From Capsulimonadales bacterium (lineage in GTDB: Bacteria > Armatimonadota > Armatimonadia > Armatimonadales > Armatimonadaceae): a stretch of 64,000 nt of DNA. The notes under the pieces were generated by a model. The model did no database searches, was not told where the DNA came from, and saw nothing but the letters and a program-made list of their open reading frames with translations. The DNA is taken from the NCBI GenBank assembly GCA_033762295.1, contig JANRLW010000018.1, positions 1 to 64,000 on the forward strand, given 5' to 3'. Positions 1 through 42,215 of the stretch are shown in pieces. Position 1 is the stretch's first letter. Each line of letters starts with the position of its first letter. Position numbers and translations under genes: made by a program.

Positions 1-246
1 GGCCCGTCCACGCTGGGCAAGATCCCAGATGGTGGGTATCAACGCCAGGATACCGATGGTCATCTGCAGGACGACCGGAGAGGATACCCAGGGTCCGAAC
101 CGAAAGAGTATCGCCGCCATTGCCAGACACCACGCCCCTCCACGGGACAGACTGACGGCCTCCGGCAACTCAAACGTATCCCCCCAGGCGATCGAGAAAG
201 TCAACGTCGCCAGGGACAGCAAGGAGTACAACATCACTCTAGACAT
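1..246 (-). CDS. N-terminal part of a membrane protein, runs off window edge; probably DUF3488/transglutaminase-like partner of DUF58
   Basis: Manual translation from ATG at 246: MSRVMLYSLLSLATLTFSIAWGDTF...LQMTIGILALIPTIWDLAQRGR, hydrophobic and open to the edge; overlaps the DUF58 stop. Product inferred from context only. Confidence 0.55.
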   Translation of the reverse strand, partial: MSRVMLYSLLSLATLTFSIAWGDTFELPEAVSLSRGGAWCLAMAAILFRFGPWVSSPVVLQMTIGILALIPTIWDLAQRGRA

Positions 247-1483
247 GCTGTTTCACACCTCTGCCGTCGTTATGCCGGATTCGCACCCGCCCGGTTCGCG
301 GCACGGCGCCATCGGAGGATGTCGTACCGCGGACCGACCGAGGACGAGTTTTCCTGACCGGACACGCATCGAACGTCTCCGTGTCCGCCGTCTCCCTATC
401 GGCGACCAGAGTCAGCGATCCCCGGTTCGAAGGAAGGGACGCGGAGGTGGTGACCACGACCGTCAGAGTTTCCAGGGAGACAGGCACGCTTTCGTTCTCG
501 ATGCCGTCGGGGCGGTCGGCCCTGATCGGCGGTGCCGGGGTCAACGGAAGACGGGCAAGGGCGTCCCGTAATGCCCGGGACGGTCCGGCATAATGGCTCG
601 TATTCCGGTCCCGGACGGTCAAGGAAATCCGCGCGCCACGACGCTCCCACTCCATCGCCAGACTTCCCGCCAGACGAATCGCCTTTTCCCGGGGCGACTC
701 CGGACCGGCATCCGCTCCGGTCAGGTCGAGAAACAGCCGAAAACTCGGAGACCGCATGGCATGACGCTCGACGACAATCAACCGTTCATGCCGAGCGGAC
801 TGCCCCCAGTGAACACGCCGCAGTGAATCCCCGCGCCGGAAGTCGCGAGTGCCCAGTAGATCCCCCTCATATCCGGCTCTTCGGCTCTCAACCGCCCCTT
901 CCTGCATCCCCTCCCGGAGAGCCTCCGGAACCTCGGGGGTCGAAACACGGCGTGGCCAGACGAGAAGTTCGCCCCGGGTTTCCAATCGGCACCGGGCATG
1001 GATCAACCCGAAAGGAAATCCGCAAATGGCCCGGGGGGGTTCCGACGGATACTGGCCTCGTAGCAGCCCGGTCAGTTCCCTGGAAAACTCCGTCTCCCCT
1101 TTCGGTACGGTGAGCGGTAGATCCGGTTCGGTTTCCCCTACGGGGTCCGTGCCGGTCGGGGCGATTCCCGCCAGACGAAGGCCCCAGACCGGCATCCAGC
1201 CGCGGTTCAGAATACGGACGTGAACATGGACCGTTTCTCCTTCCTCCCGACGGGACGCATCGAACCGAACCGTCCCGGAGAGACCACGGACAGCCAGTAT
1301 CGGATAGACAATTCCGAGTAACAGCAGCGCGGCGATGGCCAGGGATAATGCGAATCCCCGAGGATCGACGAAGGCGCCGCACAGGGTTGTGATACACAGA
1401 CCGATAATCAGAGCGCCCAGAGGGCCGGTAATCGCTTGAACGATCCGCTCAGAGGGAGCGTGTTTTAGGTAAGGGTAAGCCAT
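239..1483 (-). CDS. DUF58 family protein with N-terminal TM helices
   Basis: Motifs 'RGQY...GFPFGL', 'LLVWPR', 'GDLLGTRDFRRGDSLRRVHWGQSARHERLIVVE'. Confidence 0.85.
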   Translation of the reverse strand: MAYPYLKHAPSERIVQAITGPLGALIIGLCITTLCGAFVDPRGFALSLAIAALLLLGIVYPILAVRGLSGTVRFDASRREEGETVHVHVRILNRGWMPVWGLRLAGIAPTGTDPVGETEPDLPLTVPKGETEFSRELTGLLRGQYPSEPPRAICGFPFGLIHARCRLETRGELLVWPRRVSTPEVPEALREGMQEGAVESRRAGYEGDLLGTRDFRRGDSLRRVHWGQSARHERLIVVERHAMRSPSFRLFLDLTGADAGPESPREKAIRLAGSLAMEWERRGARISLTVRDRNTSHYAGPSRALRDALARLPLTPAPPIRADRPDGIENESVPVSLETLTVVVTTSASLPSNRGSLTLVADRETADTETFDACPVRKTRPRSVRGTTSSDGAVPRTGRVRIRHNDGRGVKQHV

Positions 1484-2360
1484 AGATTTTTAATGTCCTT
1501 ACTCCCGATGCACACGGCGCATTGATTTCGATACAGCGACGAGACCACCGGATCGCCTCTTCGCGACGATTCGTTTTGCGCAGGGCCATAATGAACTCAT
1601 TCCAGGTCTGGGAGACTTCTATATCGTCAATCAACTGTTGACGTTGGGTACGGTCCGTCCCGCCCCCCTTCGCCGCTCGGCGTTCCAGAATCTCCACTGC
1701 CTTGCGCAGGTGGACGAGGGCTTCCTCCGGTTGCCCTTTATTGGCCAGCAGATAGTGACCGTAGCTCTTCTGCAATCGGAACGATCCGGGATTGTTCGCG
1801 ATGCCCTCGGCCAGAAACTCGAGCGCCCGGTCCACATTCCGGTCCTTCGCGGCACAGAAGACCAGATAGGAGCCCATGTCGTACCCCTCAACGAAGTGCG
1901 GATCGGTCCAGGTCATCATTCGAAACAGCGGCAACGCCTCCGCGAGGTCGCGATGCCCATGGCGACGGATATCCATCCACGGTTGCGCTCCCCGTTCGAT
2001 ATCCCCCCAGAACGACCGCGGGTCATACTCCGACTCCGGCACGACGCTGGTCTCCTGGGAACCGTGATGATCTTCCAGGCTGTCCCCATGCGCGGCGACA
2101 CGTTTACCCTTCTGCACCTCCGACTCCGTCGCGGCGCGAAAGACGACTCCGCCGTGCATGTACTCGTGCGCCCTTCCGTAAAGGTATGAGGCGAGCGAGG
2201 TTCGAAACTCGCCCAGAATGGACGTCGTCGGTTTCTCCTCGTACACCTCTTCCGCTCCTTCCGTATCGGGTTGCCTGAGCATTTCGGGCAGGGCGGCGCG
2301 GAGTAAAAAACCGTTCAGAGCCAATAAGGCGACAGCCGGTATGGCGAAATAAAGTTTCAT
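1449..2360 (-). CDS. Membrane-anchored His-rich TPR-like protein (paralog of 7035..7988)
   Basis: N-terminal hydrophobic helix; 'HEYMHGG', 'HGDSLEDHH', 'RHGHRD'; 'DPHFVEGY'; 'ALEFLAEGIANNP' TPR-like helices. Confidence 0.75.
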   Translation of the reverse strand: MKLYFAIPAVALLALNGFLLRAALPEMLRQPDTEGAEEVYEEKPTTSILGEFRTSLASYLYGRAHEYMHGGVVFRAATESEVQKGKRVAAHGDSLEDHHGSQETSVVPESEYDPRSFWGDIERGAQPWMDIRRHGHRDLAEALPLFRMMTWTDPHFVEGYDMGSYLVFCAAKDRNVDRALEFLAEGIANNPGSFRLQKSYGHYLLANKGQPEEALVHLRKAVEILERRAAKGGGTDRTQRQQLIDDIEVSQTWNEFIMALRKTNRREEAIRWSRRCIEINAPCASGVRTLKIYGLPLPKTRSL

Positions 2361-2381
2361 GGATTCGTTGTCTCCGTTTTG

Positions 2382-3161
2382 CTAAAGAGCCATCTTCTCG
2401 AACCGATTGAGAGCCAACTTCAGCCAGAAGGCGCTAATGGCAATACCGTAGACGGTCAGAGCCAGCGGAATCCACCAGGCGATCGGGTCCCAGCCGTAAA
2501 CGACCTTCCGAGCAATATCGAAGAGCGTAAAGTGTGGCAGGAAGCCGTAAAGGATCGCGATCAGCCAGTTGAGAATCGGAACTCCGTCGCCGTAGGCCAG
2601 AAGAAACGATCGGGTGAACGCGCCCGATCCCAGAGCCAGCAACAACCCGAGCGTGAACGCTGCGGACGACGACACATAAACGGAAAGACAGATGCAAATG
2701 GCGGATAACCAGAGAAAGGACACGGCTTTCAGCCAGATATACTGGATCAGAATGACCTTGAGGGGCAGGCGGAGTAACGTCAGCACCAGCAGTGAGACTC
2801 CGAGCAAGAGGGCGAAGGAGGCCAGGGTGAGCACCCAGGACGCGACGAACTTGCCGGTCAGCAGTTGGGCGCGGGAGATGGGACGGGCAAGAAGCGGATA
2901 GATCGTCCGACGGGAAATCTCTTCCGGAATCTGGCGGGTCGCGATGGTCACCCCCAGGATCGTGGAAAAAAGCCCGACGGCGGTAAACGCCATATCCTTG
3001 ACAAAAATCTCGAGGCCGCTGACACCGAAGAAGGTAAAGGAGTACGCTCCCACCACCATCAGCACCGTCAGAATGACCAGGACATAGAGTTCCTTGCGGC
3101 GTACCATTTCCAGAAAACTGCCACGGATCAGGGTGCGCCAGACACGTAACGTAGGCGTCAT
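2382..3161 (-). CDS. ABC-2 type transporter permease (PilI/NosY-like)
   Basis: About 6 TM helices; 'IPEEISRRTIYPLLARPISRAQLLTGKF' signature. Confidence 0.88.
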   Translation of the reverse strand: MTPTLRVWRTLIRGSFLEMVRRKELYVLVILTVLMVVGAYSFTFFGVSGLEIFVKDMAFTAVGLFSTILGVTIATRQIPEEISRRTIYPLLARPISRAQLLTGKFVASWVLTLASFALLLGVSLLVLTLLRLPLKVILIQYIWLKAVSFLWLSAICICLSVYVSSSAAFTLGLLLALGSGAFTRSFLLAYGDGVPILNWLIAILYGFLPHFTLFDIARKVVYGWDPIAWWIPLALTVYGIAISAFWLKLALNRFEKMAL

Positions 3162-3982
3162 ACTACCGCCTCCTTTCTTTCGGTCTCCGTCCGAGTATCC
3201 TCCGAGGTGTCATTGTTACGATTCGATTCCGGCGCGGTCCGATGGAGCGAATCGCCTCCGGTTTCGACCAGAGTTACAAAGTAGTCCTCAAGCGAGGAGA
3301 CTTGTTTCACCAGGTCCGACACGCGGTGCTCGGCGATGAGTTTTCCCTTGTTCAGCACGATCACCCGGTCGCAGACGGTTTCCACTTCGGATAACTGGTG
3401 TGACGAGAAAAAGATCGTGGTCCCCCGGTCGCGCTCCTCATTCAAAATAACCCGGAGGTCCCGTCGTCCGATGGGGTCGAGACCCGACGAAACCTCATCG
3501 AGAATCAACAGGCGCGGGGTTGCCAGCAACGCCTGAGCGATACCCACACGCTGTTGCATTCCCTTGGATAAAGTCCGATTGAGAACATGCTCCTTGCCGC
3601 TCAGTCCGACGCGAATCAGCAGTTCGCCGATCCGATCCTTCAGAGCGTTGCCTTCCATTCCGTGGAGTTCGCCGTAGAAGGTCAGGGTTTCAAACGGGGT
3701 GAGATAGGGCGAGTAGAGAGCCGTCTCCGGCAAAAAACCGACCCGGCTCCGGGCATCCGCCTCCTGCACAGGAACATCAAACAGGGTGGCCTGTCCGGAG
3801 ACAGCGGTTTGAAAGCCCATCAGCGCCTTGATCGTGGATGTCTTCCCGGCCCCGTTCACTCCGAGGAATCCGACAATTTCCCCGGGACGAACATGGAACG
3901 ACACTCCGTCCACGGCGCGGAACGTCTCGCTCCGCGTCGTCGGGTAGGTGACGGTCAGGTTTTCGACTGCGATGGCGTACAT
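3158..3982 (-). CDS. ABC transporter ATP-binding protein
   Basis: Walker A GVNGAGKTS, signature LSKGMQQR, Walker B LILDE, H-loop SSH. Confidence 0.95.
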   Translation of the reverse strand: MYAIAVENLTVTYPTTRSETFRAVDGVSFHVRPGEIVGFLGVNGAGKTSTIKALMGFQTAVSGQATLFDVPVQEADARSRVGFLPETALYSPYLTPFETLTFYGELHGMEGNALKDRIGELLIRVGLSGKEHVLNRTLSKGMQQRVGIAQALLATPRLLILDEVSSGLDPIGRRDLRVILNEERDRGTTIFFSSHQLSEVETVCDRVIVLNKGKLIAEHRVSDLVKQVSSLEDYFVTLVETGGDSLHRTAPESNRNNDTSEDTRTETERKEAVV

Positions 3983-4357
3983 AAAAAATACAAAACCTCC
4001 CCGTTCGGCCGACCCGGCTTATTCGGGGCAAATCGGCTCCGGAACGTCGTAACGATGGAATAGTCGATGGATGACAAACGAACTTCGCGTTTTACCGGCA
4101 GCCGGCGGCGCCAAGGGTCTTCCCGGTCGAAATTTCGACCCGAACGTAACCGGTTCGTCCGAACGGTTCGTTACGGACGGTTCGTTACGGACGGACAACG
4201 CGATTTCGATACGGTGAGACGACTGGAGGCGTGTTTTACCGGGAACTCAGGTAGAGAGAGGCTTCGCCCGGTGCGGATGGCGAACAGGGTTCGACGTTAC
4301 AGAGGCGAACGATCAGGGTTCGGCTACCTGCCCGCATCCGGCAAAGCGAACGAGTAT

Positions 4358-4729
4358 TCAGGCGAGGGGTGGCGCGCGTGCGGAAGTGTTCAGGAAGAGA
4401 ACGGACGGAGCGTCGGCGTGCGGCAGACACCAGTGCAGAACGAAAGTCTGTGTGATCGGGGGTTGCGGACGACCGGGCGACTCCATAGAGGCATTCAGGA
4501 GCAAGAGTTCGCAGAATGGGCACGAATCGGACGCGCCTTCCGCTGTTCCGCCTACCGACAGGGACGTACCGTCTGCCGATTCACCGGAAACGCAGGTGAC
4601 TGCGGCAACCGGATGCTCATGGGCTCGGTAGTGCAGCGTTTCTCCTACGGTGTGCAGAAAAAACAACACAAAGCCAAGCAAAAGTGCCGCTCGCTCCCGT
4701 ATTCGATTGTCACGAAAGTACCTGTTCAC
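4358..4729 (-). CDS. DUF2946/CruR-like leader protein (TM-His, CxxC, C-terminal RAPP)
   Basis: 'AALLLGFVLFFLHTVGETLHYRAHEH', 'CPFC', ends 'SARAPPLA*'; GTG at 4729 follows GGAG (alternative TTG at 4750). Confidence 0.75.
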   Translation of the reverse strand: MNRYFRDNRIRERAALLLGFVLFFLHTVGETLHYRAHEHPVAAVTCVSGESADGTSLSVGGTAEGASDSCPFCELLLLNASMESPGRPQPPITQTFVLHWCLPHADAPSVLFLNTSARAPPLA

Positions 4730-4745
4730 TATCGCCCGACTCCAC

Positions 4746-4791
4746 TGCAACTATTGCAACTATTGCAATTCACCATGGTATTATTCCATGG
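4746..4791. promoter_or_regulatory. Putative metalloregulator operator in promoter region: (TGCAACTAT)x2 + TGCAATT and CCATGG-N7-CCATGG
   Basis: TTGCAA-CTA-TTGCAA palindrome at 4754-4768 in an AT-rich intergenic region just upstream of the leader ORF. Confidence 0.5.
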
Positions 4792-4886
4792 ATTTCCGTT
4801 TATTTCCAATATTTTTCGTCACTTTATCCATTTATTCCGGCCGCTCCCCGATCGGCCCGGAGGACTACAGGGAGCGGCCAGGATCG

Positions 4887-6194
4887 TCAACCGCGGACGC
4901 AGTAGAGGTGGATGCCGGTCCGCAGGAACAATGTGCCTTCGACCGCGGCCGCTCCGTAGAGAACCGGATCGATGTTTCCCATCGCCGCCCCGCGTGATCC
5001 TGCCGGACGATTTTTCGGTGTATAGTCCTCGGACGGCGAGAGATTCTCGTCGGGAGACCAGAGCGTATTCTCGCCGATTTTTTCAAATTTCGGGCCGGTT
5101 CTGATCTGCGAGACGACCCCGTTCTTCCCGAAGAAATAGACCCGGTCGCCTACCCCGATCGGAGATCCCCAGCAGATTCCGCCGATCCGTTCCGCATACC
5201 GCTCCTCGCCGGTCATCGCATCCAGACAGTAAAGAATACCGGCGGCGGTGACATAGTAGGCGTGTCCCCGGAAGACGAACGGACTCATAAAGTCGGTCGT
5301 CGCCTTTTTGGCTTCCCAGAGCGGAACGATCTCCGGACGATCCTTCTCCGTCGTGAACCGGAAACAGGCGTTGGATCCCTGCGGCGTACGTCCTCCCGGT
5401 CTCGCCAGATCGCGCTGCGCCGTGGTCGCGCCGATATACAGGCGATCCTCATCCACGAACGGAGAGGACATGATATTTCCCGTGTAGCCCGGAAGGCGCT
5501 TCCATAACGTGCCGGTGACGGCATCGTAGGCGTCCACGGCACCGTTGGAACTCACAATCACGAGTTCCCGTCCGCCCATTTCGACGCAGATCGGACTCGT
5601 CCAGCTTTTGCGCGGCTCCCGATCGGTTTTCCAGCGGGTCTTTCCGGTTCGTCGGTCCAGAGCCAGCAGGTACGACGGCCCCTGATGATCGACCAGTACG
5701 ACGACGGCATCGCGGGTCAGGGTCGGAGAACCGCCCAGACCGTACTCGTTGACCAATGGTCCGTATTCCCGTACCAGCGAGCGCTTCCAGGCGATACGGC
5801 CATCTTTGGGCGAAAGGCGCACAATGTCGCCGCTCTCAAACGAGCAGTAGAGTCCGTCCTGATCCAGGCAGGGAGTCGGTGCGGCCCGGCTCACCAGGTA
5901 ATGGCTCTCGGTCGGAAACGTGGAAGCGATCTGCTGGCTCCAGAGCAACCGCCCGTCGCGCGCCGAAAAGGCAAGCGCCAGACAGTCCTCCCGTTGCGCT
6001 CCGCGGACGGCGCTGACGAACACACGGTCGCGCCAGACAACCGGGCAGGATTGGCCGTAACCGGGAAGGCTGACCCGCCACGCAATGCCCCGGGTCGGCG
6101 ACCATCGCTCGGGCAATCGCTTCAGATCGGCATGACCGACTCCGCCGTTGCGGAACGCCGTCCAGCGATCGCCCGGCAGTTTGCGCAGCGTCAC
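4887..6194 (-). CDS. PQQ-like/BamB-like beta-propeller protein
   Basis: Repeated 'ALD..TGK..WK', 'GYGQSCPVVWRDRVFV', 'SSPFV', ends 'LFLRTGIHLYCV'. Confidence 0.85.
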   Translation of the reverse strand: MTLRKLPGDRWTAFRNGGVGHADLKRLPERWSPTRGIAWRVSLPGYGQSCPVVWRDRVFVSAVRGAQREDCLALAFSARDGRLLWSQQIASTFPTESHYLVSRAAPTPCLDQDGLYCSFESGDIVRLSPKDGRIAWKRSLVREYGPLVNEYGLGGSPTLTRDAVVVLVDHQGPSYLLALDRRTGKTRWKTDREPRKSWTSPICVEMGGRELVIVSSNGAVDAYDAVTGTLWKRLPGYTGNIMSSPFVDEDRLYIGATTAQRDLARPGGRTPQGSNACFRFTTEKDRPEIVPLWEAKKATTDFMSPFVFRGHAYYVTAAGILYCLDAMTGEERYAERIGGICWGSPIGVGDRVYFFGKNGVVSQIRTGPKFEKIGENTLWSPDENLSPSEDYTPKNRPAGSRGAAMGNIDPVLYGAAAVEGTLFLRTGIHLYCVRG

Positions 6195-7007
6195 CTACGG
6201 CCGTCCTTTCCCGTTGTAGAACGTGTCGTCGATGACGCCCGTTCCGGCAAGAAAACCAAGCCGGGCGTTCCGAATCACCGCGGCATTGGCGATACCGGTG
6301 GGCGTCCTTACCGAAAACGTCTTGACATGACCGTCCGCAAAGGCGACGTTGGCCTTTTCCAGGTGCCGGGCATGGACCGTCGGAGTGGCTCCGCCCCGGC
6401 TGGAAGGCGGCCAGGCCCAGGGATGGAGAGTGGGACGATTTTCGACCGTGTTCCAGAGGGCGTTGTTGCAGAAAACCAGCATATCCGCCGGCGTCTCGAT
6501 GGCGGCCAGAGCGGCGGGGTTCTGCGTCCATCCCGGTTGCGGTCCGCCCGGGTGGGCGAAGGTTCCGTACCCTCCCAGATAGCAGACATTGTAACCGTAA
6601 TGCACCTTACCCCAGAGGTTGCTGAAGGGCAATCCGGAGGCCGCCGGGTCACCGAGAAGGGACGCATTCTTCAGGTAAGGCCAGAGCAGACCATGCTGTT
6701 CCCCGAGGTCGGGCGCGGAACCGAAGGTCGTGCCCGAACGGACGGCCGCATACCAGTAGACCACACGGGAACCCGCGGTCAGGGACGTTTGCAGTCCGGT
6801 CGGAAGCACCGTTTCATCATAGTCCTGCGCGTACATGAGCCATCCCAGAGCGATCTGCTTCAGGTTGGACAGGTCAGAGGTCTGTCGGGCTTTGGCGCGG
6901 GCCTGAGCGAAGACCGGGAAAAGGATCGCGGCCAGTATCGCGATGATTGCGATGACGACGAGCAACTCGATGAGCGTAAAGCCCCTGCGGGCCGGTGTAT
7001 AAGACAT
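6195..7007 (-). CDS. Prepilin-type N-terminal cleavage/methylation protein, DUF1559-like, with H-X9-DG motif
   Basis: [29 protein letters not shown]; '[15 protein letters not shown]'. Confidence 0.92.
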
Positions 7008-7034: not shown

Positions 7035-7988
7035 TTAATCGGTTCCATTTTGCGTTTTGAGGAGAGTCACGCCGCTCGTTCCTTTCGGTAGCGGTTCGCC
7101 GACGGACTCCAAATACTTTCGGCACGTGACGTCCTCAGGGAAGTCGGTTAGGCCTTCCAATGCCGCTTGCCGGGCTTTGTACGGTTGTTTCATCTCCCGG
7201 TAGCCAATGACGCGGCGGCGGACGCACTCCTGCCACGCCTCCCGTTCATCGGCAATGAGCGTCTCCGGGTCCCGTGCCCTGGCGATGTGGATGCCTCGCT
7301 CCGCATGACGAACGGCCTCCGCATAGTTATCTTTGCCGTTGAAGTAACTGGCACGCATGTAAAGGTAAGAAAAGGTACTTTGAATCTCGATGCTCTCCGG
7401 GTTGTTGATTTCGCCTTCTCGAATGAATCGGATGGCTTCGTCAAACGCCTTTTCCTGATGGGCAATCATCATGGCTCCGACGGCATAGCCCGGGATGAAG
7501 TGCGGATTGCTCCACGTCATCAGGCGAAACAGGGGAAGGGCCTCTTTCGGGTCTCGATGAGAATGGTTTCGCATATCCAGGTACGGCTTCACGTCCCGCT
7601 CGATATCTCCCAGAACTCCGCGCCAGTCATTTTCTTTGGCAAGTACGATGGTTGTTTCCGTCGCGTGCTGGCGATGGCCTTTCTCCGATTCGTCGCCGGC
7701 ATGACCGATACGTTGCGTCTGTTGATGACGCTTTTCTTCCTCGGTAAGCCCACGCAAATCCACACCGCTATGGAGGTATTTGTCGACCTTCATCCAGAGG
7801 AAGTCCGCCATATTGGAACGGAACTGCCCGAACAAGGAGGCGGCAGCGACCTCCTCCAACTTGGTCTGCTGGGCCTTCGTCATACCGACAGGCGCCGCGA
7901 GGTCCGGTTTGACGATCTGAGCCAGCCGGTGGTTTAACAGAAGACCACCGGTAATCAGCAAAGGGAGGACCACCACAAACATCCTCAT
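7035..7988 (-). CDS. Membrane-anchored His-rich TPR-like protein (paralog of 1449..2360)
   Basis: Start MRMFVVVLPLL, ATG overlapping the permease stop (ATGA); 'YLHSGV', 'GHRQH', 'NHSHRDPKEALPLFRLMTWSNPHF'. Confidence 0.75.
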   Translation of the reverse strand: MRMFVVVLPLLITGGLLLNHRLAQIVKPDLAAPVGMTKAQQTKLEEVAAASLFGQFRSNMADFLWMKVDKYLHSGVDLRGLTEEEKRHQQTQRIGHAGDESEKGHRQHATETTIVLAKENDWRGVLGDIERDVKPYLDMRNHSHRDPKEALPLFRLMTWSNPHFIPGYAVGAMMIAHQEKAFDEAIRFIREGEINNPESIEIQSTFSYLYMRASYFNGKDNYAEAVRHAERGIHIARARDPETLIADEREAWQECVRRRVIGYREMKQPYKARQAALEGLTDFPEDVTCRKYLESVGEPLPKGTSGVTLLKTQNGTD

Positions 7989-8773
7989 AGTGCTTGCCTC
8001 CGAAATCGTATTGCGCCGACCATCAGAAAAATCGCGCTGTGAACGACGGCATAGATCAGGAGCAGCAGGACGGTGGTACCGGAAATCGGTTTCCATCCGT
8101 AACTGACCTTTTTCGAAAGGTCGAACAGGTCCAGTTGCGGCAAGGTGAAGTAGGCGACTTCCAGTCCCTTCCGGACCGCACTGCCAACCGAACCGTGCAA
8201 CATCGTTACGGCGGTGGAGAAGGTTGAGGAACCGATGGCGAGAAGCAAAGCCATCGTGGCGGTCGCCTGCGGCGTGAGAAAAAGCGAGAGGGCGATTGTC
8301 AGCGCGCAGATAATAGCGAGCGAGAAGAACCGCAAGAGCAGGTACTGCCAGAAAATGGCTCCGACGCCAAGGCCAAAATACAGTAAGGCTCCCCATCCGA
8401 TCACGGTAAATGTTAGGAGGGATATCGTGGAAAGAGTTAATGCCCCCAGGAACTTACCGAAAATAAGGTCGAACCGGGTCACCGGGCGAGCCAGTAACGG
8501 ATATATGGTGCGGCGGGAGATCTCCTCGGGCATCTGCCGTGCCGCGAAGAGAACGGCAAGAATTACCGAGAGAATGTTAACAACGGTCAGGGTGACGTCT
8601 TTGAGAAACATCTCCAGGCCACGAACGCCGAAGTGACCGATGACCGATGCCGCGCCAATCATCACTACCGCCAGGATAGCGGCGACCCACAGGTCCTTGC
8701 GTCGGATGGATTCCAGAACCGCCGTATAGGCCAGTGCCCCCCAGACGGTAAGTTTGAAAAGAAAAATGTTCAC
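7985..8773 (-). CDS. ABC-2 type transporter permease
   Basis: Multi-TM; 'MPEEISRRTIYPLLARPVTRFDLIFGKF'. Confidence 0.88.
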   Translation of the reverse strand: MNIFLFKLTVWGALAYTAVLESIRRKDLWVAAILAVVMIGAASVIGHFGVRGLEMFLKDVTLTVVNILSVILAVLFAARQMPEEISRRTIYPLLARPVTRFDLIFGKFLGALTLSTISLLTFTVIGWGALLYFGLGVGAIFWQYLLLRFFSLAIICALTIALSLFLTPQATATMALLLAIGSSTFSTAVTMLHGSVGSAVRKGLEVAYFTLPQLDLFDLSKKVSYGWKPISGTTVLLLLIYAVVHSAIFLMVGAIRFRRQAL

Positions 8774-9564
8774 GGGTTATTTTCCTTTGCGTATTGTTCT
8801 TCGGCCTGCTGGATGGTGGTAATAAAGTAGTTTTCCAGTGCGGACCCGATTCCCTGACGAAACCGGTCATCTACCGGACGTTCATCCTGCTTTCTTCCGC
8901 CGTGAATCAGGATGACCCGGTCGCAGAGTTGTGCAACCTCATCAAGTTCATGGGAGGAGAGAAAGATCGTGGTTCCTCCGGAGCGCACATCCGCCAGTAT
9001 CTCGCGCAGGTGGCGGCGACCGATCGGGTCAACGCCGGAGGTTACCTCATCCAGCACCAGAAGGTCGGGGTTGCCCAGAAGCGCCTGTGCGATTCCCAGG
9101 CGTTGCTGCATCCCTTTGGAAAAAGTACGGAGCGGCTGTTTTTCTTTCCCCCCCAATCCGACCAGATTGAGAAGGCGATAGGACTCGTCTCGGAGAGCCT
9201 TCCCCCCCAGGCGTTGCAGTTTCCCGTAAAGCCAGAGCGTCTCCATCGGCGTCAGGAAAGGGTAGTAGAGAGCGACTTCGGGAAGGTAGCCGATTTTGCT
9301 GTTGGCGGCAGGCGTCCCGGCAGGCTCGTCGAAGACCCGAATCGTTCCGGAATCCGGAGTAAGGAACCCCATAACGGCCTTGATGGTTGAGGATTTTCCT
9401 GCCCCGTTCGGCCCGAGAAACCCAACCACCTCGCCGGCTTGCACCTCCAGGGAGAGGTCCTCCACCACTCGTCGTTTCGGTTTCATCGGCCCCGTCGAAT
9501 AGGAAACGTTGAGGTTGTCGAGCGAAAGTGCCGTTGCCGTTTGCGATCGCATTCCGGTCGTCAT
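8770..9564 (-). CDS. ABC transporter ATP-binding protein
   Basis: GPNGAGKSS, FSKGMQQR, LVLDE, SSH; start uncertain (9564 or 9552). Confidence 0.93.
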   Translation of the reverse strand: MTTGMRSQTATALSLDNLNVSYSTGPMKPKRRVVEDLSLEVQAGEVVGFLGPNGAGKSSTIKAVMGFLTPDSGTIRVFDEPAGTPAANSKIGYLPEVALYYPFLTPMETLWLYGKLQRLGGKALRDESYRLLNLVGLGGKEKQPLRTFSKGMQQRLGIAQALLGNPDLLVLDEVTSGVDPIGRRHLREILADVRSGGTTIFLSSHELDEVAQLCDRVILIHGGRKQDERPVDDRFRQGIGSALENYFITTIQQAEEQYAKENNP

Positions 9565-9720
9565 AAAGAATTCCGACAACCGACCGGAATTCGCCGGTGA
9601 AACCGCATCGGTACCATCAGGTGCATAACAGCCGGACATTTCCGTTCCTTTTCGAGCGATACGAGAGAGTGGGTTCAAGTGAACCGATGGAGATACGTTG
9701 CCGTCGCAGGTCGCAGGGTA

Positions 9721-9749
9721 TCCCGTGGAGGCGGACAGCCTCCACGGGA
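9721..9749. other. Strong intergenic hairpin between the PEP-CTERM gene and the ABC module
   Basis: tcccgtggaggc-ggaca-gcctccacggga, 12-bp perfect stem, no U-tract. Confidence 0.55.
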
Positions 9750-9798
9750 CACCGGACAATCCGTGACATCGGTCGATGTCAGCGGACATCGGATGACA

Positions 9799-10783: not shown

Positions 10784-11548
10784 CTACAGGGGCGGTTTGG
10801 CGAAGTTGAATCCGGAATCCGACCAGCCTTTGATTCGGGCGGCGGGAATCGCTTTGACGTGCGTATCGCAGTACAGATAGTTCGCAACACCGCCGCGTTC
10901 GGGAGCGTTCCCGGACTGACCGTGTCGATCCACTTCTATCTCCGATGTGATGAAACGCCATCGGGCCACCGGGTCCCGATAGCCGAACCAGGCCGCGCTG
11001 TGAACGTGGTCCCAGTAGGTATCGCGCGGTTTGGCATCGCTCAGTTCGAAGAGGAGAAATGTTTCCGAAGGCCGTGGCACCTGATCGAGGCTCGTGATGA
11101 TATCCGGAGAGGCGATAATCGCGCCCGTGAACGGGTCCCGTGACTTGATCGCGACATACTCGTTCATGACATAGCTGGTTCCGTTGAATCCGCGTACCTC
11201 CTGCCCGCGCAGATCGCTCGGACACAGGCGAATGGCATGCACGTTGGCGACATAAGGAGCCAGAGCCAGAACCCAGACCACCGGTTGCCCCCGGTAGTCA
11301 TGCGCGGTACGAGGTAATTCTCCATCGAAATCATCACTGTACATTCGAAGGGCGATACCGATCTGCCGCATGTTGCTCACACAGGAGGTCTGTCGCCCCT
11401 TCTCCCGTGCCGCCGCGAAGGTGGGTAACAGAATCGCGGCCAGTATCGCGATTATGGCGATGACGACGAGCAGTTCGATCAGCGTGAATCCGCCCGTTGT
11501 CGCCGGTCGGACCGTCCGGATCGATCCGACGGTTGCATATGGTCTCAT
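10784..11548 (-). CDS. Prepilin-type/DUF1559-like protein
   Basis: [25 protein letters not shown]; 'CVSNMRQIG'; '[10 protein letters not shown]'; '[11 protein letters not shown]'. Confidence 0.9.
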
Positions 11549-11584
11549 GACCGACCTCTTTCGTTCCTTTCGTTGAAGACGCAT

Positions 11585-12109
11585 TTATCGCCCGCCCTTC
11601 TTTTCCGTCTGATGGGCGACTTTGTCGAACGCATGGATCGCTTTGTCGAGGGATTCCATCTCCGTGTCCAGGGCGTGCATCCGCTTATCGAGCGTCGCCG
11701 CCTGCGCCTGACGCTGCTTCGCATTCATCCGGTGATACGCCTTGTCGAACGCATGAAACTCGCGATCGATCCGGTGAAACCGGGCGTCGAGCGAATGAAA
11801 GGCTTTGTCCTGCCCGGAGGATTTCGGGTTCTTCCGGTCGTAGACTTTGTCCATCGCATGGAACGACTTTTCCGTTCGATGGAACCGCTGTTCGAGTCGG
11901 TGGAACGATTTATCGAGCGCGGCGGCAGAAAGGCGGGACGGTTGCCGGTGGTACGCCTGATCGGCCTTATGGAAGTCGGCATCTTCCTTATGCAGGGTTT
12001 TATCTCCCTGATGGAAGGTCTTGTCACCGGGCGTCTGCGCCACGACGGACATCGGCGACCCGATAAGGGTCGTCGCCAAAAGCATCAGCCAGGCCGACTT
12101 GATGGTCAT
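11585..12109 (-). CDS. Secreted His/Asp heptad-repeat helical protein, unknown family
   Basis: SD AAGGAG; signal peptide ending VVA|Q; 16 heptads approximating D/E-x-x-F-H-x-x, 14 His. Confidence 0.8.
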   Translation of the reverse strand: MTIKSAWLMLLATTLIGSPMSVVAQTPGDKTFHQGDKTLHKEDADFHKADQAYHRQPSRLSAAALDKSFHRLEQRFHRTEKSFHAMDKVYDRKNPKSSGQDKAFHSLDARFHRIDREFHAFDKAYHRMNAKQRQAQAATLDKRMHALDTEMESLDKAIHAFDKVAHQTEKKGGR

Positions 12110-12358: not shown

Positions 12359-12802
12359 TCAGGCGAGGGCGGGAGGGCCACGAGAGGCGGAGTGACGGAC
12401 GAGCGTCCGCAGACAGGGGAGGAAGGCGGCGAACGGAGCGGAGTCCGTCAGGAACGCGGTCACCGCAGCCGTCAGGGTAACGACGGCGACAACCGCCAGC
12501 AACGCTTCGAGTTCGCAGACCCAGCAGGCATGCGGAGCGGACAACACTTCCGTTATCGGGGAGAGAGCGGAGGCGGGAGAAACCACCCCTGCCGTTCCGT
12601 CGGATGCCGCAACCGGGCTTTCGTGAACCGACCGGTCTTGCCGGTCCGTTCGGGAATGCGTCGGTGCGGTCCGTCCCGGAAGTTCATGCGTCAGACCGTG
12701 GAAGATCGCGCCGGTGACATGCATCCCGAGGAGCAACAGTCCCATAAGAAGAGACAGTCGCCCCCGAAATTGAGATCGCAAATTGGTCCGGCCTGTGGTC
12801 AC
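12359..12802 (-). CDS. DUF2946/CruR-like leader protein (TM-His, CxxC, C-terminal RGPP)
   Basis: 'LSLLMGLLLLGMHVTGAIFHGLTHE', 'HACWVC', ends 'SASRGPPALA*'; GTG lies 6 nt after TATAAT. Confidence 0.75.
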   Translation of the reverse strand: MTTGRTNLRSQFRGRLSLLMGLLLLGMHVTGAIFHGLTHELPGRTAPTHSRTDRQDRSVHESPVAASDGTAGVVSPASALSPITEVLSAPHACWVCELEALLAVVAVVTLTAAVTAFLTDSAPFAAFLPCLRTLVRHSASRGPPALA

Positions 12803-12808
12803 ATTTGT

Positions 12809-12849
12809 ATTATAGCCATGGGGCGTCAAAATCTGCAACTGATTTTCCA
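12809..12849 (-). promoter_or_regulatory. Sigma70-like promoter (TTGCAG-N18-TATAAT) overlapped by a possible Fur/Zur-like box
   Basis: Minus strand: TGGAAAATCAGTTGCAG...TATAAT-acaaat-GTG. Confidence 0.55.
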
Positions 12850-12901
12850 TAAGCGGGAGAAGGGGCCGAGGGGGAAGGGACGGCGGAAAAAGAGGGGGAA
12901 A

Positions 12902-12973
12902 AGCGGGAGACGGGACTCGAACCCGCGACATTCTGCTTGGGAAGCAGACGCTCTACCACTGAACTACTCCCGC
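12902..12973 (-). tRNA. tRNA-Gly (CCC), 3' CCA not encoded
   Basis: GCGGGAGTAGTTCAGTGGTAGAGCGTCTGCTTCCCAAGCAGAATGTCGCGGGTTCGAGTCCCGTCTCCCGCT; cloverleaf with anticodon loop TTCCCAA. Confidence 0.96.
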
Positions 12974-13849: not shown

Positions 13850-14785
13850 TTACGGATAGACGACGCCGCCGATCTGCGGATTCCAGAGATCCTTCTGACC
13901 GGAGCTGCAGTTGAAGTTCTCGAAGTTCGGCACGCAGACGTTTTCCCAGACCTGCGGATTGACAACCGCGAACTCGTCATCGATATCGCGCGTCCAGGTG
14001 GAACCCGGCCGCATCGCCTTCACATGACCGTCGCAGAAGAGGAACGTGGAAACCGTGCGCCCGGAGTGCAGACCGACCGGGAATCCGATCGTGAACGGCG
14101 GGCGGCTGGAGGTTCCGGCGGTACGGCGGTGAAGCGGCGCGCCGTTCCGGTTGGTCGCGCCGGCGTTCGCCGCGTCGGTGCGCTGCGATCCTTCGTACAG
14201 CAGGATCAGGCTGGCCGGTTCCGGCGTCAGGTCGGTATTGATTCCGGATGCGAAGCTGTCCGGCTGGACCGGCGTCGGGTTGACCACGTTGGTGACGTAG
14301 GTGCCCGGATGGGTCGCCCGGAGGTAGTCGTTCATGATGAACGAGCGCTGGCGGTCGACGCCCGGCACGGCCACGCCGAGGTTGGTACCGGTGAACGGAA
14401 GCGCCGACGGACAGGAGTACATATTGGCCGCCGAACTGACCCGGTCGCTCGAACGGACATACGGGAAGATACCGCCCGCCGCAACCGTCGCGGAGCCGCC
14501 CTGGATCCAGCCGGTCTGCGGGTTGCCACCGCTCTGGATATTGGTGCCGCCGCCGGGGCAGGGGAAGACGCCGTCATAGTCGGTCGCATACATCAGGAAC
14601 GCCAGGCCCAGCTGCTTCTGGTTGGACGTACAGGTCGCCTGCCGCGCCTTCTCACGAGCCTGGGCGAATACCGGGAAAAGAATGGCCGCCAGAATGGCGA
14701 TGATCGCGATTACCACGAGCAACTCGATCAACGTAAAGCCGGAGCTTACCCGCAGGGTAAATCCGCGAACGGAGGAACGAATCAT
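13850..14785 (-). CDS. Prepilin-type/DUF1559-like protein
   Basis: [34 protein letters not shown]; 'FLFCDGHVK'. Confidence 0.92.
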
Positions 14786-38658: not shown

Positions 38659-39471
38659 ATGCGCTTCGGAATCGGCTCCTACACGTACGCCTGGGCGATC
38701 GGCGTCCCGGGATTCCCCGCGCCACCCAATCCGCTGGATGCCTTTCGCCTGCTGGACAGAACGGTAGGATTCGGCCTGTCGGTCGTTCAAATCTGCGATA
38801 ATCTTCCCCTGACGGACCTTGCCGAACGCGACCTGCAGGCGTTCGCGGAACGCGCTTTTTCCGCCGGAGTCCATATCGAGATCGGGACACGGGGAATCGA
38901 CGAGACCAACCTCCGACAATATCTGGCGCTGGCGCGGCGTTTCCGCTCTCCGTTCGTACGCGTGGTCATCGACAGGGGAAGCGACGAACCGTCGCCCGAG
39001 GAGACCGTTCGTCGTCTGCGTCCGCTGGTCGCCGCCTTCGCCGCCGAAAACGTCGTCCTCGCTCTGGAAAATCACGACCGGTTCCCCGCCGACATCCTGG
39101 CGGATATCGTGGAGCGGTTGGGGCCGGAAACGGTGGGCATCTGTCTGGATACCGTCAACTCCTTCGGTTCGCTGGAGGGTCCGGACGTGGTCATTCCGAC
39201 CCTCGCGCCGTACGCGGTCAATCTGCATATCAAGGATTTCAGCATTCGTCGCGCAACCCACAACATGGGATTTCTGATCGAGGGCCAACCCGCCGGTCAG
39301 GGACGATTGAACATCCCGGAACTCCTCACCAGCCTTCCGAAATGCCAGACCGCCATCCTGGAACTCTGGACGCCGTACCAGGAAACGATCGCCCGGACCG
39401 TCGCTCTCGAAGCGCAATGGGCGGATGAAAGCGTCATCTACCTGAAAAGTCTCCTCCCGTCACCGGCGTGA
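38659..39471 (+). CDS. Xylose-isomerase-like TIM barrel, probable 3-oxo-isoapionate decarboxylase (OiaC-like)
   Basis: 'IEIGTRG', 'LENHD', 'CLDTVNS', 'LHIKDF'; specific function inferred from context. Confidence 0.65.
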   Translation: MRFGIGSYTYAWAIGVPGFPAPPNPLDAFRLLDRTVGFGLSVVQICDNLPLTDLAERDLQAFAERAFSAGVHIEIGTRGIDETNLRQYLALARRFRSPFVRVVIDRGSDEPSPEETVRRLRPLVAAFAAENVVLALENHDRFPADILADIVERLGPETVGICLDTVNSFGSLEGPDVVIPTLAPYAVNLHIKDFSIRRATHNMGFLIEGQPAGQGRLNIPELLTSLPKCQTAILELWTPYQETIARTVALEAQWADESVIYLKSLLPSPA

Positions 39472-39512
39472 CGGTAGGAAAAACCCGCGATATACTGCGA
39501 CAGGCACGAACG

Positions 39513-39941
39513 ATGAAACCTAACGCGACCGGTCGGATGACCGCTTTCGGAAAAAACGCGTCGAACCTTCCCGGTCTGGTACGACGTCGGTTTTCTCGTC
39601 TCGCCCTGCCGCTGGCTCTTCTCTATGCTCTGCTGTTCGTCGGCATGACCTGGCACCCGCACGAGCAAAACGGAGTCGGAACCGGGGGAACGGTTTCATC
39701 GTACGCCTGCGCTCCGGTCGGTACGTCCCAACAGACGGAGGTACAATCCTCCCATGGCGTGCGAACGGGCTGTCCGGTCTGTGACTTTCTCATCCAACCG
39801 GTTCAACAGGCCGGCGTCCCGGAGCGTGCCTCCGAACCGCTCCTGGTTTTCTTCGATGCGCCGGTTGCCGAACGGCCCCTGCCCTACCTCCCCTATCGCT
39901 TCTGCGATCGCTCCGTCTCCCGCGGTCCTCCGGTTTCGTAG
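39513..39941 (+). CDS. DUF2946/CruR-like leader protein (TM-His, CxxC, C-terminal RGPP)
   Basis: 'LALPLALLYALLFVGMTWHPHE', 'GCPVC', ends 'VSRGPPVS*'; start 39513 or 39537. Confidence 0.75.
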   Translation: MKPNATGRMTAFGKNASNLPGLVRRRFSRLALPLALLYALLFVGMTWHPHEQNGVGTGGTVSSYACAPVGTSQQTEVQSSHGVRTGCPVCDFLIQPVQQAGVPERASEPLLVFFDAPVAERPLPYLPYRFCDRSVSRGPPVS

Positions 39942-40167: not shown

Positions 40168-41340
40168 ATGTCTGCCTTGTTTCGTCCGCCCATCGGGGGC
40201 GTTTCGATCGTCCGTACGGTTCGATGTTTCATCGGTCCGTTGATCGGTCTGTTCGTCCTTCTGTTCGCCCTGCCGGCCGGGGCGCACCAGTTTCAGGTGG
40301 AGCCGGTCAGTGTCACGATCCGCCCGCAGGCGACCTTCATTCACGTCGAATTCGTCGGCAATGTTCAGGACATCACCCAGGCGGTGACGGTTCAGGATTC
40401 CGAGAAGCGCGGCGACGAATTCGCGCCCGAAGTTCTCCAGCGAATGACCGAGTATTTGAACGGTCACCTGTTCATCTCTCAGAACGGCGAGGCGCTTCCG
40501 GCCACCGTCACCGTTCTTCGCTTCCAGTCCGGCCTGGACCCGACACAGGCGCGCTTCCGAATGGTGGCGCGGTATCCCCGTGCCATCGTCTCTAAGGACG
40601 CCGAAAAGGCCCCGATCACGATCACCTCCAACCTGTTCGACTACCTGCCCAACGCCGTTTCGATGGTTACGGTCAGCGGACTGGTCCATAAGCTGGTTTC
40701 AGGCGACCCGACGAAAAACTCCGCGACGATCGATCCCTCGGCGTTCGCCTCGAATCTCTTCCGCAATATTCGCGATTTCCTCATCCTCGGGGCCGAGCAT
40801 ATCGTCACCGGTCCGGATCATATTCTGTTTATCCTTGCGTTCCTTCTCGTCGCTCCGAACCTTCCCTCCCTGATCCGAACGCTGACCGGTTTCACGATCG
40901 CACACTCCATCACCCTCGTACTGTCCACTCTCGGAATCGTTCAGTTCGATGCCCGAATCGTCGATATCGCCGTCGCCGCCTCGATCGTCTATGTCGGCGC
41001 GGAAAACTTCTTTCTCAAGGACATGAACCGGCGCTTCTGGGTCGCCAGCGGATTCGGGCTGGTGCATGGACTCGCCTTTGCCGGGAACCTGCGGGACGCC
41101 GGTCTTCCCGAAGGTTCCGCACTGTTCTGGAGTCTGCTGTCCTTCAACCTGGGGGTGGAGATCGCTCAGGTGATTCTCTGCCTGATCGCGTTTCCGCTGG
41201 TGACCCTGTGGCGCACCGGTGTGGAAAAACGCGCCCGATCGGGGGCCATGACCTGGCCGGCCGTCATCCGTGTCACTTCCGCCGGGGTTATCATTGCCGG
41301 CGTCTACTGGCTCATACAGCGAGCCTTCGGGTCCGCCTGA
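40168..41340 (+). CDS. HupE/UreJ family (HupE_UreJ_2-like) membrane protein with exported N-terminal domain
   Basis: AGA|H start; '[14 protein letters not shown]', 'FTIAHSITL', '[10 protein letters not shown]', 'FNLGVEIAQ'. Confidence 0.9.
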
Positions 41341-41426: not shown

Positions 41427-42215
41427 ATGAAACCGTTGTTCGTTGGTCGCCCTGTTTGCGCCTCCGGGGCCAGGGCCGCCTTTACGCTGATCGAACTGCT
41501 CGTCGTCATCGCAATAATAGCGATACTGGCAGCCATCCTGTTCCCGGTCTTCGCCCAGGCCCGCGAAAAAGCCCGTCAGACGACCTGTCTTTCCAACCAG
41601 AAGCAGATCATGCTCGCTCAGATGATGTACGTCCAGGACTATGACGAGCGGTTCTGTGAAACCCATCATGACCTGGAAGAAGGGGAAACGGTGGCGGACC
41701 TCTATGTCTGGTACCAGCCGCTGCAGCCCTATATCAAGAACGATGGCATCTTCCGCTGCCCGTCGCTCAGCGATACGCCGACCCTCTTCCCGTCGTTTAT
41801 GACGCCGGACATCTGGCGGACCGTCCGTACCGACTATCTGATCAACGGCTTTTTCTCCCATGGCATCGCCCTGGCGGCGGTAGCCACTCCCGCCGAACAG
41901 ATCGTCATCGCCGAGCGGAATCGGAACATCGCGTTCTTCGATTACCATCCCTGGGCCTCCGCGCCGGACGGTCAGTGGGAGCGGGGCTTCATCGACGGAT
42001 CGAACTACCGGCTGACCGATCCCGAGTCCGGCGCTCAGGTGATCGATCCCAGTAACCGGGGTCGCCATTCGGAGGGCAGCAACTACGGGTTCGCCGACGG
42101 TCACGTCAAGTATATGAAGTTCACCGCCACCCTCGACCGGAACAAACCGGTGGACGATGTCACCAACGTCGGCATGCACAACCGGGACAACCTGCCGCCG
42201 AACGACGAGCATTAA
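41427..42215 (+). CDS. Prepilin-type/DUF1559-like protein with H-X9-DG motif
   Basis: [33 protein letters not shown]; '[15 protein letters not shown]'; 'ETHHDLEE'. Confidence 0.92.

Follow-up and report, generated by a model that had tools for sequence, protein, structure and literature searches.

A small open reading frame (ORF) on the reverse strand of a 64,000-nt stretch of contig JANRLW010000018.1, from a Capsulimonadales bacterium of the Armatimonadota, probably encodes a leader peptide of the CruR/CutF (DUF2946) kind that arrests its ribosome and acts in cis. The ORF (4729..4358, -) stands ahead of genes for an ABC transporter ATPase, an ABC-2 permease, a TPR protein and a DUF58 protein, and the whole stretch is referred to below as the window. 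The ORF, its motifs, its relationship to the family, the fixed spacer between two of the motifs, the long downstream gap free of terminator-like sites and a bias of C over G can all be read directly from the DNA. A preliminary description, made from the sequence, had proposed a nascent-chain metal sensor at this site.

The precedent for such a leader is CruR (Bp2923) of Bordetella pertussis, a DUF2946 protein in which arrest at RAPP keeps the operon on; copper, sensed through CxxC, lifts the arrest, whereupon Rho can terminate transcription (Roy et al. 2022, PMC9426467). The CxxC and RAPP of CruR are separated by 45 residues, a distance that leaders of this type keep to within 1-2 residues, and lengthening this spacer by 5 residues strongly reduced the copper response (PMC9426467). 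In the same account an export signal is reported for >95% of family members, cruR homologues head operons, usually with long gaps to the next gene, and the Rho utilisation (rut) site was coarsely mapped to a C>G region in cruR (PMC9426467). In CutF of Rhodobacter capsulatus, which carries CxxxC and a PPP tail, copper-induced stalling melts a stem-loop over the Shine-Dalgarno (SD) sequence of the next gene (PMC9973294; 10.1101/2025.02.05.636593). Among arrest variants, RAPP and RGPP are described as having the highest potency and as being the most strongly avoided in proteomes; small exported proteins encoded ahead of diverse genes carry them close to the C-terminus, and in a purified system CruR itself arrests with the P and A sites at its two Pro codons (PMC12992588). 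What the preliminary description had stated of RAPP/RGPP arrest, of CruR acting with Rho and of the relatedness of CutF agrees with these four sources.

By analogy, the ORF would specify a short peptide that starts with a signal sequence or an N-in membrane anchor, and its ribosome would arrest at the C-terminal RAPP, the P site holding Pro120 and the A site Pro121. At arrest the invariant CxxC, 44 residues upstream, would lie just outside the exit tunnel, where a metal ion may bind to it, probably with a contribution from the nearly invariant H33 beside the helix, and this binding would alter the duration of the arrest. The arrested ribosome and those queued behind it would cover the C-rich 3′ part of the ORF, and this cover would decide whether Rho loads and stops RNA polymerase in the 375-nt gap. 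The operon under control would be that of the ABC ATPase, ABC-2 permease, TPR protein and DUF58 protein (3982->1), and the preferred polarity is as in CruR, such that metal would relieve the arrest, permit termination and turn the operon off. Translation, arrest, metal sensing, the identity of the metal, the part of Rho and the polarity are what we infer from the features described below.

The leader ORF and its peptide

The ORF encodes 123 aa from a GTG start at 4729 to a TGA stop at 4360-4358. The only earlier in-frame start is TTG at 4750, immediately behind a TAG stop. The GTG start agrees with that of a relative, P0005 (44% identity over 122 residues, pairwise E 9e-28), the predicted N-termini of the two aligning residue for residue. 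GC content is lowest at the second codon position, the same pattern as in neighbouring genes.

The preliminary description had listed a hydrophobic helix, HYRAHEH, CPFC and RAPP followed by Leu-Ala and the stop, and all of these are present. The peptide begins with a basic N-terminus, MNRYFRDNRIRER (residues 1-13, 5 Arg), followed by a hydrophobic stretch of 12 residues (14-25). The helix and an adjoining His/Glu cluster (H26, E30, H33, H37, E38, H39) occupy 4613..4690 (-), as seen in the sequence and in an AlphaFold model, with HYRAHEH at residues 33-39 (nt 4633-4613). In the model the helix spans residues 2-37 and the block-mean predicted local distance difference test (pLDDT) score is 79-96 across residues 1-40; the chain beyond the helix is mostly of low confidence (mean pLDDT 68). 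In the sequence and the model, the basic N-terminus, the 12-residue hydrophobic stretch and the confident helix may represent the signal peptide or N-in/C-out anchor expected of CruR-type leaders, and the net-positive N-terminus suggests an N-in orientation of the anchor. Further along, CPFC (4511..4522, -; Cys70 and Cys73, residues 70-73) is a candidate metal-binding pair, invariant in 30/30 family sequences, that matches the CxxC of DUF2946 in position and spacing. A spacer of 44 residues separates it from RAPP (4367..4378, -; residues 118-121, encoded by CGC GCG CCA CCC). By analogy to the CruR toeprint (PMC12992588), the ribosome is predicted to stall with its P site at Pro120 (4372-4370) and its A site at Pro121 (4369-4367).

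A six-frame script for the composite pattern CxxC, 38-52 aa, R[AG]PP, 0-9 aa and a stop found three ORFs in the window, namely the target, 12359..12952 (-) and 39429..39941 (+), all with spacers in the mid-forties and tails of 2-3 residues. Across the 561 six-frame segments of 60 aa or more, R[AG]PP alone is seen 10 times, and the three occurrences closest to a stop are those of these three leaders. The motif set exceeds chance. That the ORF is a chance product of GC-rich DNA and no gene is hardly credible, and we consider it refuted by P0005 and by the 29 short relatives that carry all the motifs (see below). The weak GC signal at its third codon positions would suit a chance ORF, as would the absence of its exact sequence from the ESM Atlas and from the representatives returned by the 1.84-billion-protein profile search, among which the other two window leaders are present as P0002 and P0003. 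However, a Pfam search of the ORFs overlapping the leader on both strands gave no match except one at E 0.074.

Family relationship and conservation

The DUF2946 profile (PF11162) matches the 123-aa form of the target over profile positions 10-117 of 117 (E 4.4e-4, 21.4 bits) and the 130-aa form at 21.2 bits (E about 5e-4). The preliminary description had proposed a search with this hidden Markov model (HMM) as a check; the match is nearly full-length, but its score falls short of the curated gathering cut-off of 23.7 bits. An NCBIfam search of the target matched nothing.

A profile of the three window ORFs was searched against 1.84 billion protein representatives (E <= 1e-3) and returned 33 matches. 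Twenty-nine are short proteins (114-153 aa), two of them the window's own other leaders. The remaining four (P0004, P0006, P0010 and P0019) are 853-4551 aa long and matched in 5-11 separate stretches, with E down to 1e-21; these are probably low-complexity or repeat matches and were excluded from all family counts. The family alignment comprises 30 sequences, the target and its 29 short relatives.

CxxC is present in all 30 sequences and is followed, after 43-46 residues, by RAPP or RGPP, with 2-7 further residues ahead of the stop. The spacer is 46 residues in 16 sequences, 45 in four, 44 in six and 43 in four, whereas the distance from the conserved His to CxxC in the same sequences ranges from 32 to 57 residues. 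Only C70, C73, R118, P120 and P121 are invariant columns, with H33 nearly so, and the second residue of the arrest motif is A or G throughout (30/30). Mean column identity is 24%. Judged from the alignment, this is how a leader peptide is typically conserved. That the ORF instead encodes a small metal-binding protein in its own right, anchored in the membrane (a chaperone or accessory subunit), without a regulatory role and with an incidental RAPP tail, is very unlikely. Such a protein might have its own promoter-like site, as the target does, its His/Cys-rich ectodomain could bind metal, and the pairing of leader and ABC gene is not conserved. However, RAPP or RGPP lies 2-7 residues from the end in every sequence while the rest drifts to so low an identity, the model chain is mostly of low confidence, and each of the three paralogues precedes a gap of 226-375 nt.

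DUF2946 itself matches 16 of the 30 family sequences at E <= 0.01 (best 1.2e-7), and PF11162 is the precomputed domain on one relative, P0020. In the ESM Atlas the target adjoins both unnamed clusters and clusters carrying PF11162; a single family set is common to 17 of the 30 clusters nearest to it, and in the row shown PF11162 is on 32% of members. A word-based search with the 30-sequence profile gave six proteins, all single or double entries without useful names. The family HMM, run against 6,532 stop-to-stop segments, matched the three window ORFs only, and these match by construction since all three are in the training alignment. From the sub-threshold, nearly full-length match, the DUF2946 matches of the relatives and the shared motifs it follows that, at the level of sequence, the target is a divergent DUF2946 relative, which has the motifs that define the family but not the Pfam score.

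The gap and Rho-dependent termination

The leader stop and the ABC ATPase ATG (3982-3980) are separated by a gap of exactly 375 nt (3983..4357, -), in line with the figure of about 375 nt given previously. The gap had also been described as C-rich untranslated RNA, which is true of its first half; in the ~180 nt adjoining the ABC gene the C-richness is gone, C/G being back to about 1, and over the whole gap C is 30.9% against 26.4% for G. The C>G stretch, a candidate Rho loading region, extends over 4163..4539 (-), that is, the 3′ third of the ORF and the first ~190 nt of the gap. In 78-nt windows from ~4539 to ~4163 the C/G ratio is 1.5-2.4, corresponding to the 93rd-99.7th percentile of all windows on both strands, peaking at 2.40 (99.7th percentile) within the ORF and reaching about 2.0 within the gap. 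A rise in C/G is found at the same place, the ORF end, on the mRNA of both paralogous leaders.

A terminator scan revealed no terminator-like site within any of the three gaps; one weak match lies inside the target ORF (4693-4675, -) and one antisense match inside the ORF of leader 3. An Rfam search of 3700-5000 at E <= 1 returned 0 matches, and a 59-aa ORF inside the gap has no Pfam match. The whole 375-nt gap folds with z +0.99 relative to shuffles, and the proximal gaps of the three leaders fold like shuffled sequence (z -0.27 to -0.53; target -0.53). A more structured, multi-hairpin domain is located mid-gap (4058..4207, -; minimum free energy (MFE) -55.7 kcal/mol, z -1.67). Its MFE and centroid folds are nearly identical, 11 of 200 shuffles fold as well, and it contains the tandem 14-nt repeat D2 (4160-4187) and the palindrome GTCGAAATTTCGAC. 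This domain is a possible, at best suggestive, pause or termination zone. Alignment of the three gaps gave no convincing common block. The hexamer CGTTCG was tried as a common gap element (7 vs 1.16 expected, 6-fold) and rejected, as it is not significant after testing all 6-mers.

Given such a leader, a Rho step is plausible, with a likelihood that we would put just short of even, because the gap is long and without a terminator-like site, C exceeds G, and CruR provides the precedent. Translational control of the CutF type, in which metal-induced arrest would remodel the mRNA and expose the ABC SD sequence with no termination, is rather unlikely. The ABC SD, GGGGAGG (4002-3996), can pair with ABC codons 7-10 (I3) in both MFE and centroid folds, and a 17-nt long-range repeat, I1 (4166-4150 with 4017-4001), abuts it; the switching on of an exporter by excess metal would also be more natural under such control, as it is for CutO. 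However, the stall site lies ~365 nt from the SD, and shuffled sequences fold at least as well as the SD region (z +1.14). According to Ozturk et al., melting of a stem-loop by a stalled ribosome requires short gaps, and the gaps of most CutF-like genes are reported as <100 nt (PMC9973294). Moreover, the geometry here is that of CruR (CxxC, ~45 residues, RAPP) and not that of CutF (CxxxC, PPP), the target having neither these two motifs nor a short gap with an SD-masking stem-loop.

The operon and its upstream region

A promoter-like site, TTGGAA-18-AATAAT (TG-extended; 4780..4809, -), is found upstream of the leader in an AT-rich stretch of 38-42% GC, compared with 63% for the window; the promoter scan gave two overlapping matches here against 0.4 expected. 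Between this site and the start codon lies TTGCAA-TAG-TTGCAA-TAG-TTGCAG (4746..4768, -), three palindromic hexamers with a 9-bp period, which may be an operator adding transcriptional control; no similar hexamer repeat was noticed, by eye only, before the other two leaders. Further upstream is an inverted repeat, I2 (15-nt arms, 87% complementary; 4834..4884, -), 3 nt past the stop of a beta-propeller gene ending at 4887. No U-run is present behind it, and it is possibly the end of the beta-propeller transcript.

Downstream, the genes are tightly packed on the same strand. The first is the ABC transporter ATPase gene (3158..3982, -; PF00005, E 3.1e-26), which overlaps by 4 nt with that of the ABC-2 type permease (2382..3161, -; PF12730, E 3.1e-7). 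A membrane-anchored TPR protein with His-rich motifs follows (1449..2360, -; TPR families), whose nearest Atlas clusters are commonest in Armatimonadota, and then a DUF58 protein (239..1483, -; PF01882, E 9.3e-7), whose gene shares 35 nt with the TPR gene and 8 nt with the next ORF (1..246). With a promoter-like site upstream, a 375-nt gap and packed same-strand genes behind it, the leader has the position of the first gene of an operon.

This gene content bears on whether the peptide might sense something other than a metal, either the pulling force of membrane insertion, as in arrest peptides of the ApdA/ApdP/SecM type, or the periplasmic thiol-disulfide state via CxxC. The N-terminal membrane helix of the leader would accommodate such a sensor, RAPP peptides were first found before Sec/YidC genes, and small RAPP/RGPP ORFs are also reported before disulfide-bond genes (PMC12992588). 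However, the gene after the leader is an ABC ATPase and not a protein-localisation gene, and none of the downstream genes is Sec/YidC or Dsb by Pfam. The DUF2946 link, the near-invariant His and the HupE/UreJ permease beside a paralogue (see below) all point to metals, and the signal peptide of CruR is reported to be dispensable for regulation (PMC9426467). A non-metal sensor is, on this evidence, distinctly improbable.

The module of ATPase, ABC-2 permease and TPR protein is present twice in the window, at 3982..1449 (-) and 9789..7035 (-), and the two permeases are 39% identical. An alignment search of genome contigs with the permease found 49 related loci (L001-L049; 30-48% identity), mostly from Armatimonadota (Fimbriimonadales, Chthonomonas) with some from PVC-group genomes, and the ATPase gene is directly upstream of the permease gene in 45 of them. 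The two TPR proteins of the window (1449..2360 and 7035..8396, both -) and that of L001 (7677..8645) were seen by eye to have His motifs in common after the N-terminal anchor, in the order H-x-x-x-H-G/S-G, H-x-H-R and then LPL-F/Y-R-x-MTW. A NosY-type copper-enzyme maturation system was considered for the permease and rejected, there being no PDB match and a PF12679 score of 24.1 bits, below the cut-off of 27.2.

Paralogous leaders in the window

Leader 2 (12359..12802, -; ORF open to 12952) has CWVC, a 44-residue spacer and RGPP followed by Ala-Leu-Ala and the stop. Its in-frame starts are GTG at 12802 or TTG at 12781. A perfect TATAAT was noticed by eye at 12814-12809, where the promoter scan reports nothing. 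A tRNA-Gly(CCC) gene (12902..12973, -) lies directly upstream, which is why 12880-12950 is very C-rich. The gap behind leader 2 is 249 nt, and the first gene after it encodes an exported, His-rich repeat protein of 174 aa (11585..12109, -). This protein, in which histidines abound, consists of a D-x-x-F/Y/M-H unit repeated along the chain. Pfam gave no family above noise for it, and it may serve to bind metal in the periplasm. Together with the genes for this His-rich protein, a PEP-CTERM protein and a DUF1559 protein, leader 2 heads the second ATPase-permease-TPR module from further upstream.

Leader 3 (39513..39941, +) has CPVC, a 46-residue spacer and RGPP followed by Val-Ser and the stop, and is preceded by a promoter-like GTGACG-17-TATACT (39468-39496). 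A HupE_UreJ_2 metal permease gene (40168..41340, +; E 1.7e-39) begins 226 nt after it and is followed by a gene for a DUF1559 protein. HupE/UreJ is a reported neighbour class of CutF-like proteins (PMC9973294). Throughout, DUF1559/N-terminal-methylation (prepilin-like) proteins interleave with the leader-headed clusters, for example at 6195..7007, 10784..11584, 13850..14785 and 41430..42215.

We lean to the CruR polarity because of the CruR motif geometry and because a paralogue stands before an uptake-type permease; the opposite polarity would fit an exporter. The CxxC suggests Cu(I), and the His/Glu cluster and the HupE neighbour make Ni, Co and Zn candidates too. A bolder and distinctly tentative reading is that the three leaders represent one portable cassette and a small post-transcriptional metal regulon, three diverged leaders in 64 kb each having been recruited before a different transport system; on this reading they may differ in metal specificity, as set by their differing His/Cys surroundings. 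The three targets of such a regulon would be the cluster of the His-rich periplasmic protein with its ABC module, the second ABC-2/TPR/DUF58 module and the HupE/UreJ permease.

Points against an arrest leader

Several results weigh against the leader and its proposed mode of action. The coding signal of the ORF is weak, since GC content at its third codon positions is 0.63, compared with 0.67-0.78 in neighbouring genes. Its DUF2946 score remains below the Pfam cut-off (21.4 vs 23.7 bits), and a word-based search with the target found no close homologue. With regard to Rho, C/(C+G) at four-fold degenerate sites is 0.536 in the target and 0.588 in the pooled leaders (3′ halves), compared with 0.522 in reference genes (p = 0.18). 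The in-ORF C>G bias may thus reflect the content of Pro, Ala, Ser, Thr and Leu, and it is attributable to amino-acid composition because the four-fold synonymous sites are not C-enriched. Moreover, the C-rich part of the gap lies beyond the stall site (4372-4367), and a stalled ribosome would therefore leave it uncovered. The ABC, TPR and DUF58 genes have no metal annotation, and a profile of the permease, run at E <= 1 against PDB sequences, among which those of NosY-type permeases would be expected, had no match.

Finally, the leader was found in 0 of the 49 related loci by regular expression or by HMM at E <= 10; 39 of these loci have at least 900 nt before the ATPase gene. The composite pattern gave a single match there, in a spurious Arg/Pro-rich off-frame segment. 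A looser Pro-tail filter applied to the 39 loci yielded five weak segments, sitting in basic or Pro/Ser-rich frames, none of which has CxxC, spacer and R[AG]PP. From this absence, the leader looks like a cassette recruited in this lineage and not an ancestral part of the ABC module.

Comparison with known leaders

The target resembles CruR in being the small first gene of an operon with a putative N-terminal export signal or anchor, in having CxxC, ~45 residues (45 in CruR, 44 in the target) and RAPP 2-3 residues before the stop, and in its long gap, C>G region around the ORF end and predicted poorly structured chain. It differs in scoring below the Pfam cut-off, in the extra H-x3-H-E cluster beside the helix and in its gap, which at 375 nt is 2.3 times longer than the 162 nt of CruR. 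The genes downstream are also different, the TonB-dependent transporter and PepSY_TM protein of CruR being replaced here by an ABC-2 transporter, TPR and DUF58 proteins, and so is the setting, an Armatimonadota host with three paralogues in 64 kb. Armatimonadota are not mentioned in the text of the supplementary files of Roy et al. (PMC9426467), and the main texts of PMC9426467, PMC9973294 and PMC12992588, figures and the supplement on CutF-like neighbours aside, name no ABC transporter among the neighbours.

CutF and the target belong to one broad family. Like CutF, the target has a Cys motif in a nascent chain that would be exported, and it is predicted to stall at C-terminal Pro codons; CutF acts in cis on the next gene, as is proposed here. 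Unlike the target, CutF depends on EF-P, has a short gap with a stem-loop over the SD and shows copper-induced stalling. ApdA and ApdP are likewise small proteins, exported or in the membrane, whose RAPP core lies close to the C-terminus; unlike the target, they are described as preceding Sec-related genes, as being without CxxC and as sensing translocation and not a ligand (PMC7897499, PMC10951233).

The TnaC peptide of the E. coli tna operon is unrelated to the target leader. TnaC senses free tryptophan inside the tunnel, with stalling at the stop codon. Nevertheless, the logic is similar to that proposed here, in that a ligand-dependent stalled ribosome at the leader end controls Rho-dependent termination in a long spacer (PMC9973294).

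Significance

The leader is most likely another regulator of the CruR/CutF family in a new setting, with no new mechanism. To our knowledge, CruR and CutF are the only studied nascent chains that report metal availability to the ribosome. Both come from Proteobacteria, where they stand before recognised copper genes. The present leader extends the CruR motif geometry to Armatimonadota and to an ABC-2 transporter operon as presumed target, and provides a functional lead for an uncharacterised ABC/TPR module. Moreover, with three paralogues side by side, ligand specificity and polarity could be compared in a natural setting. If the regulon reading is true, the regulator would reveal the ABC-2 permease/TPR module, widespread in Armatimonadota and the PVC group, as a transporter of metals or metallophores.

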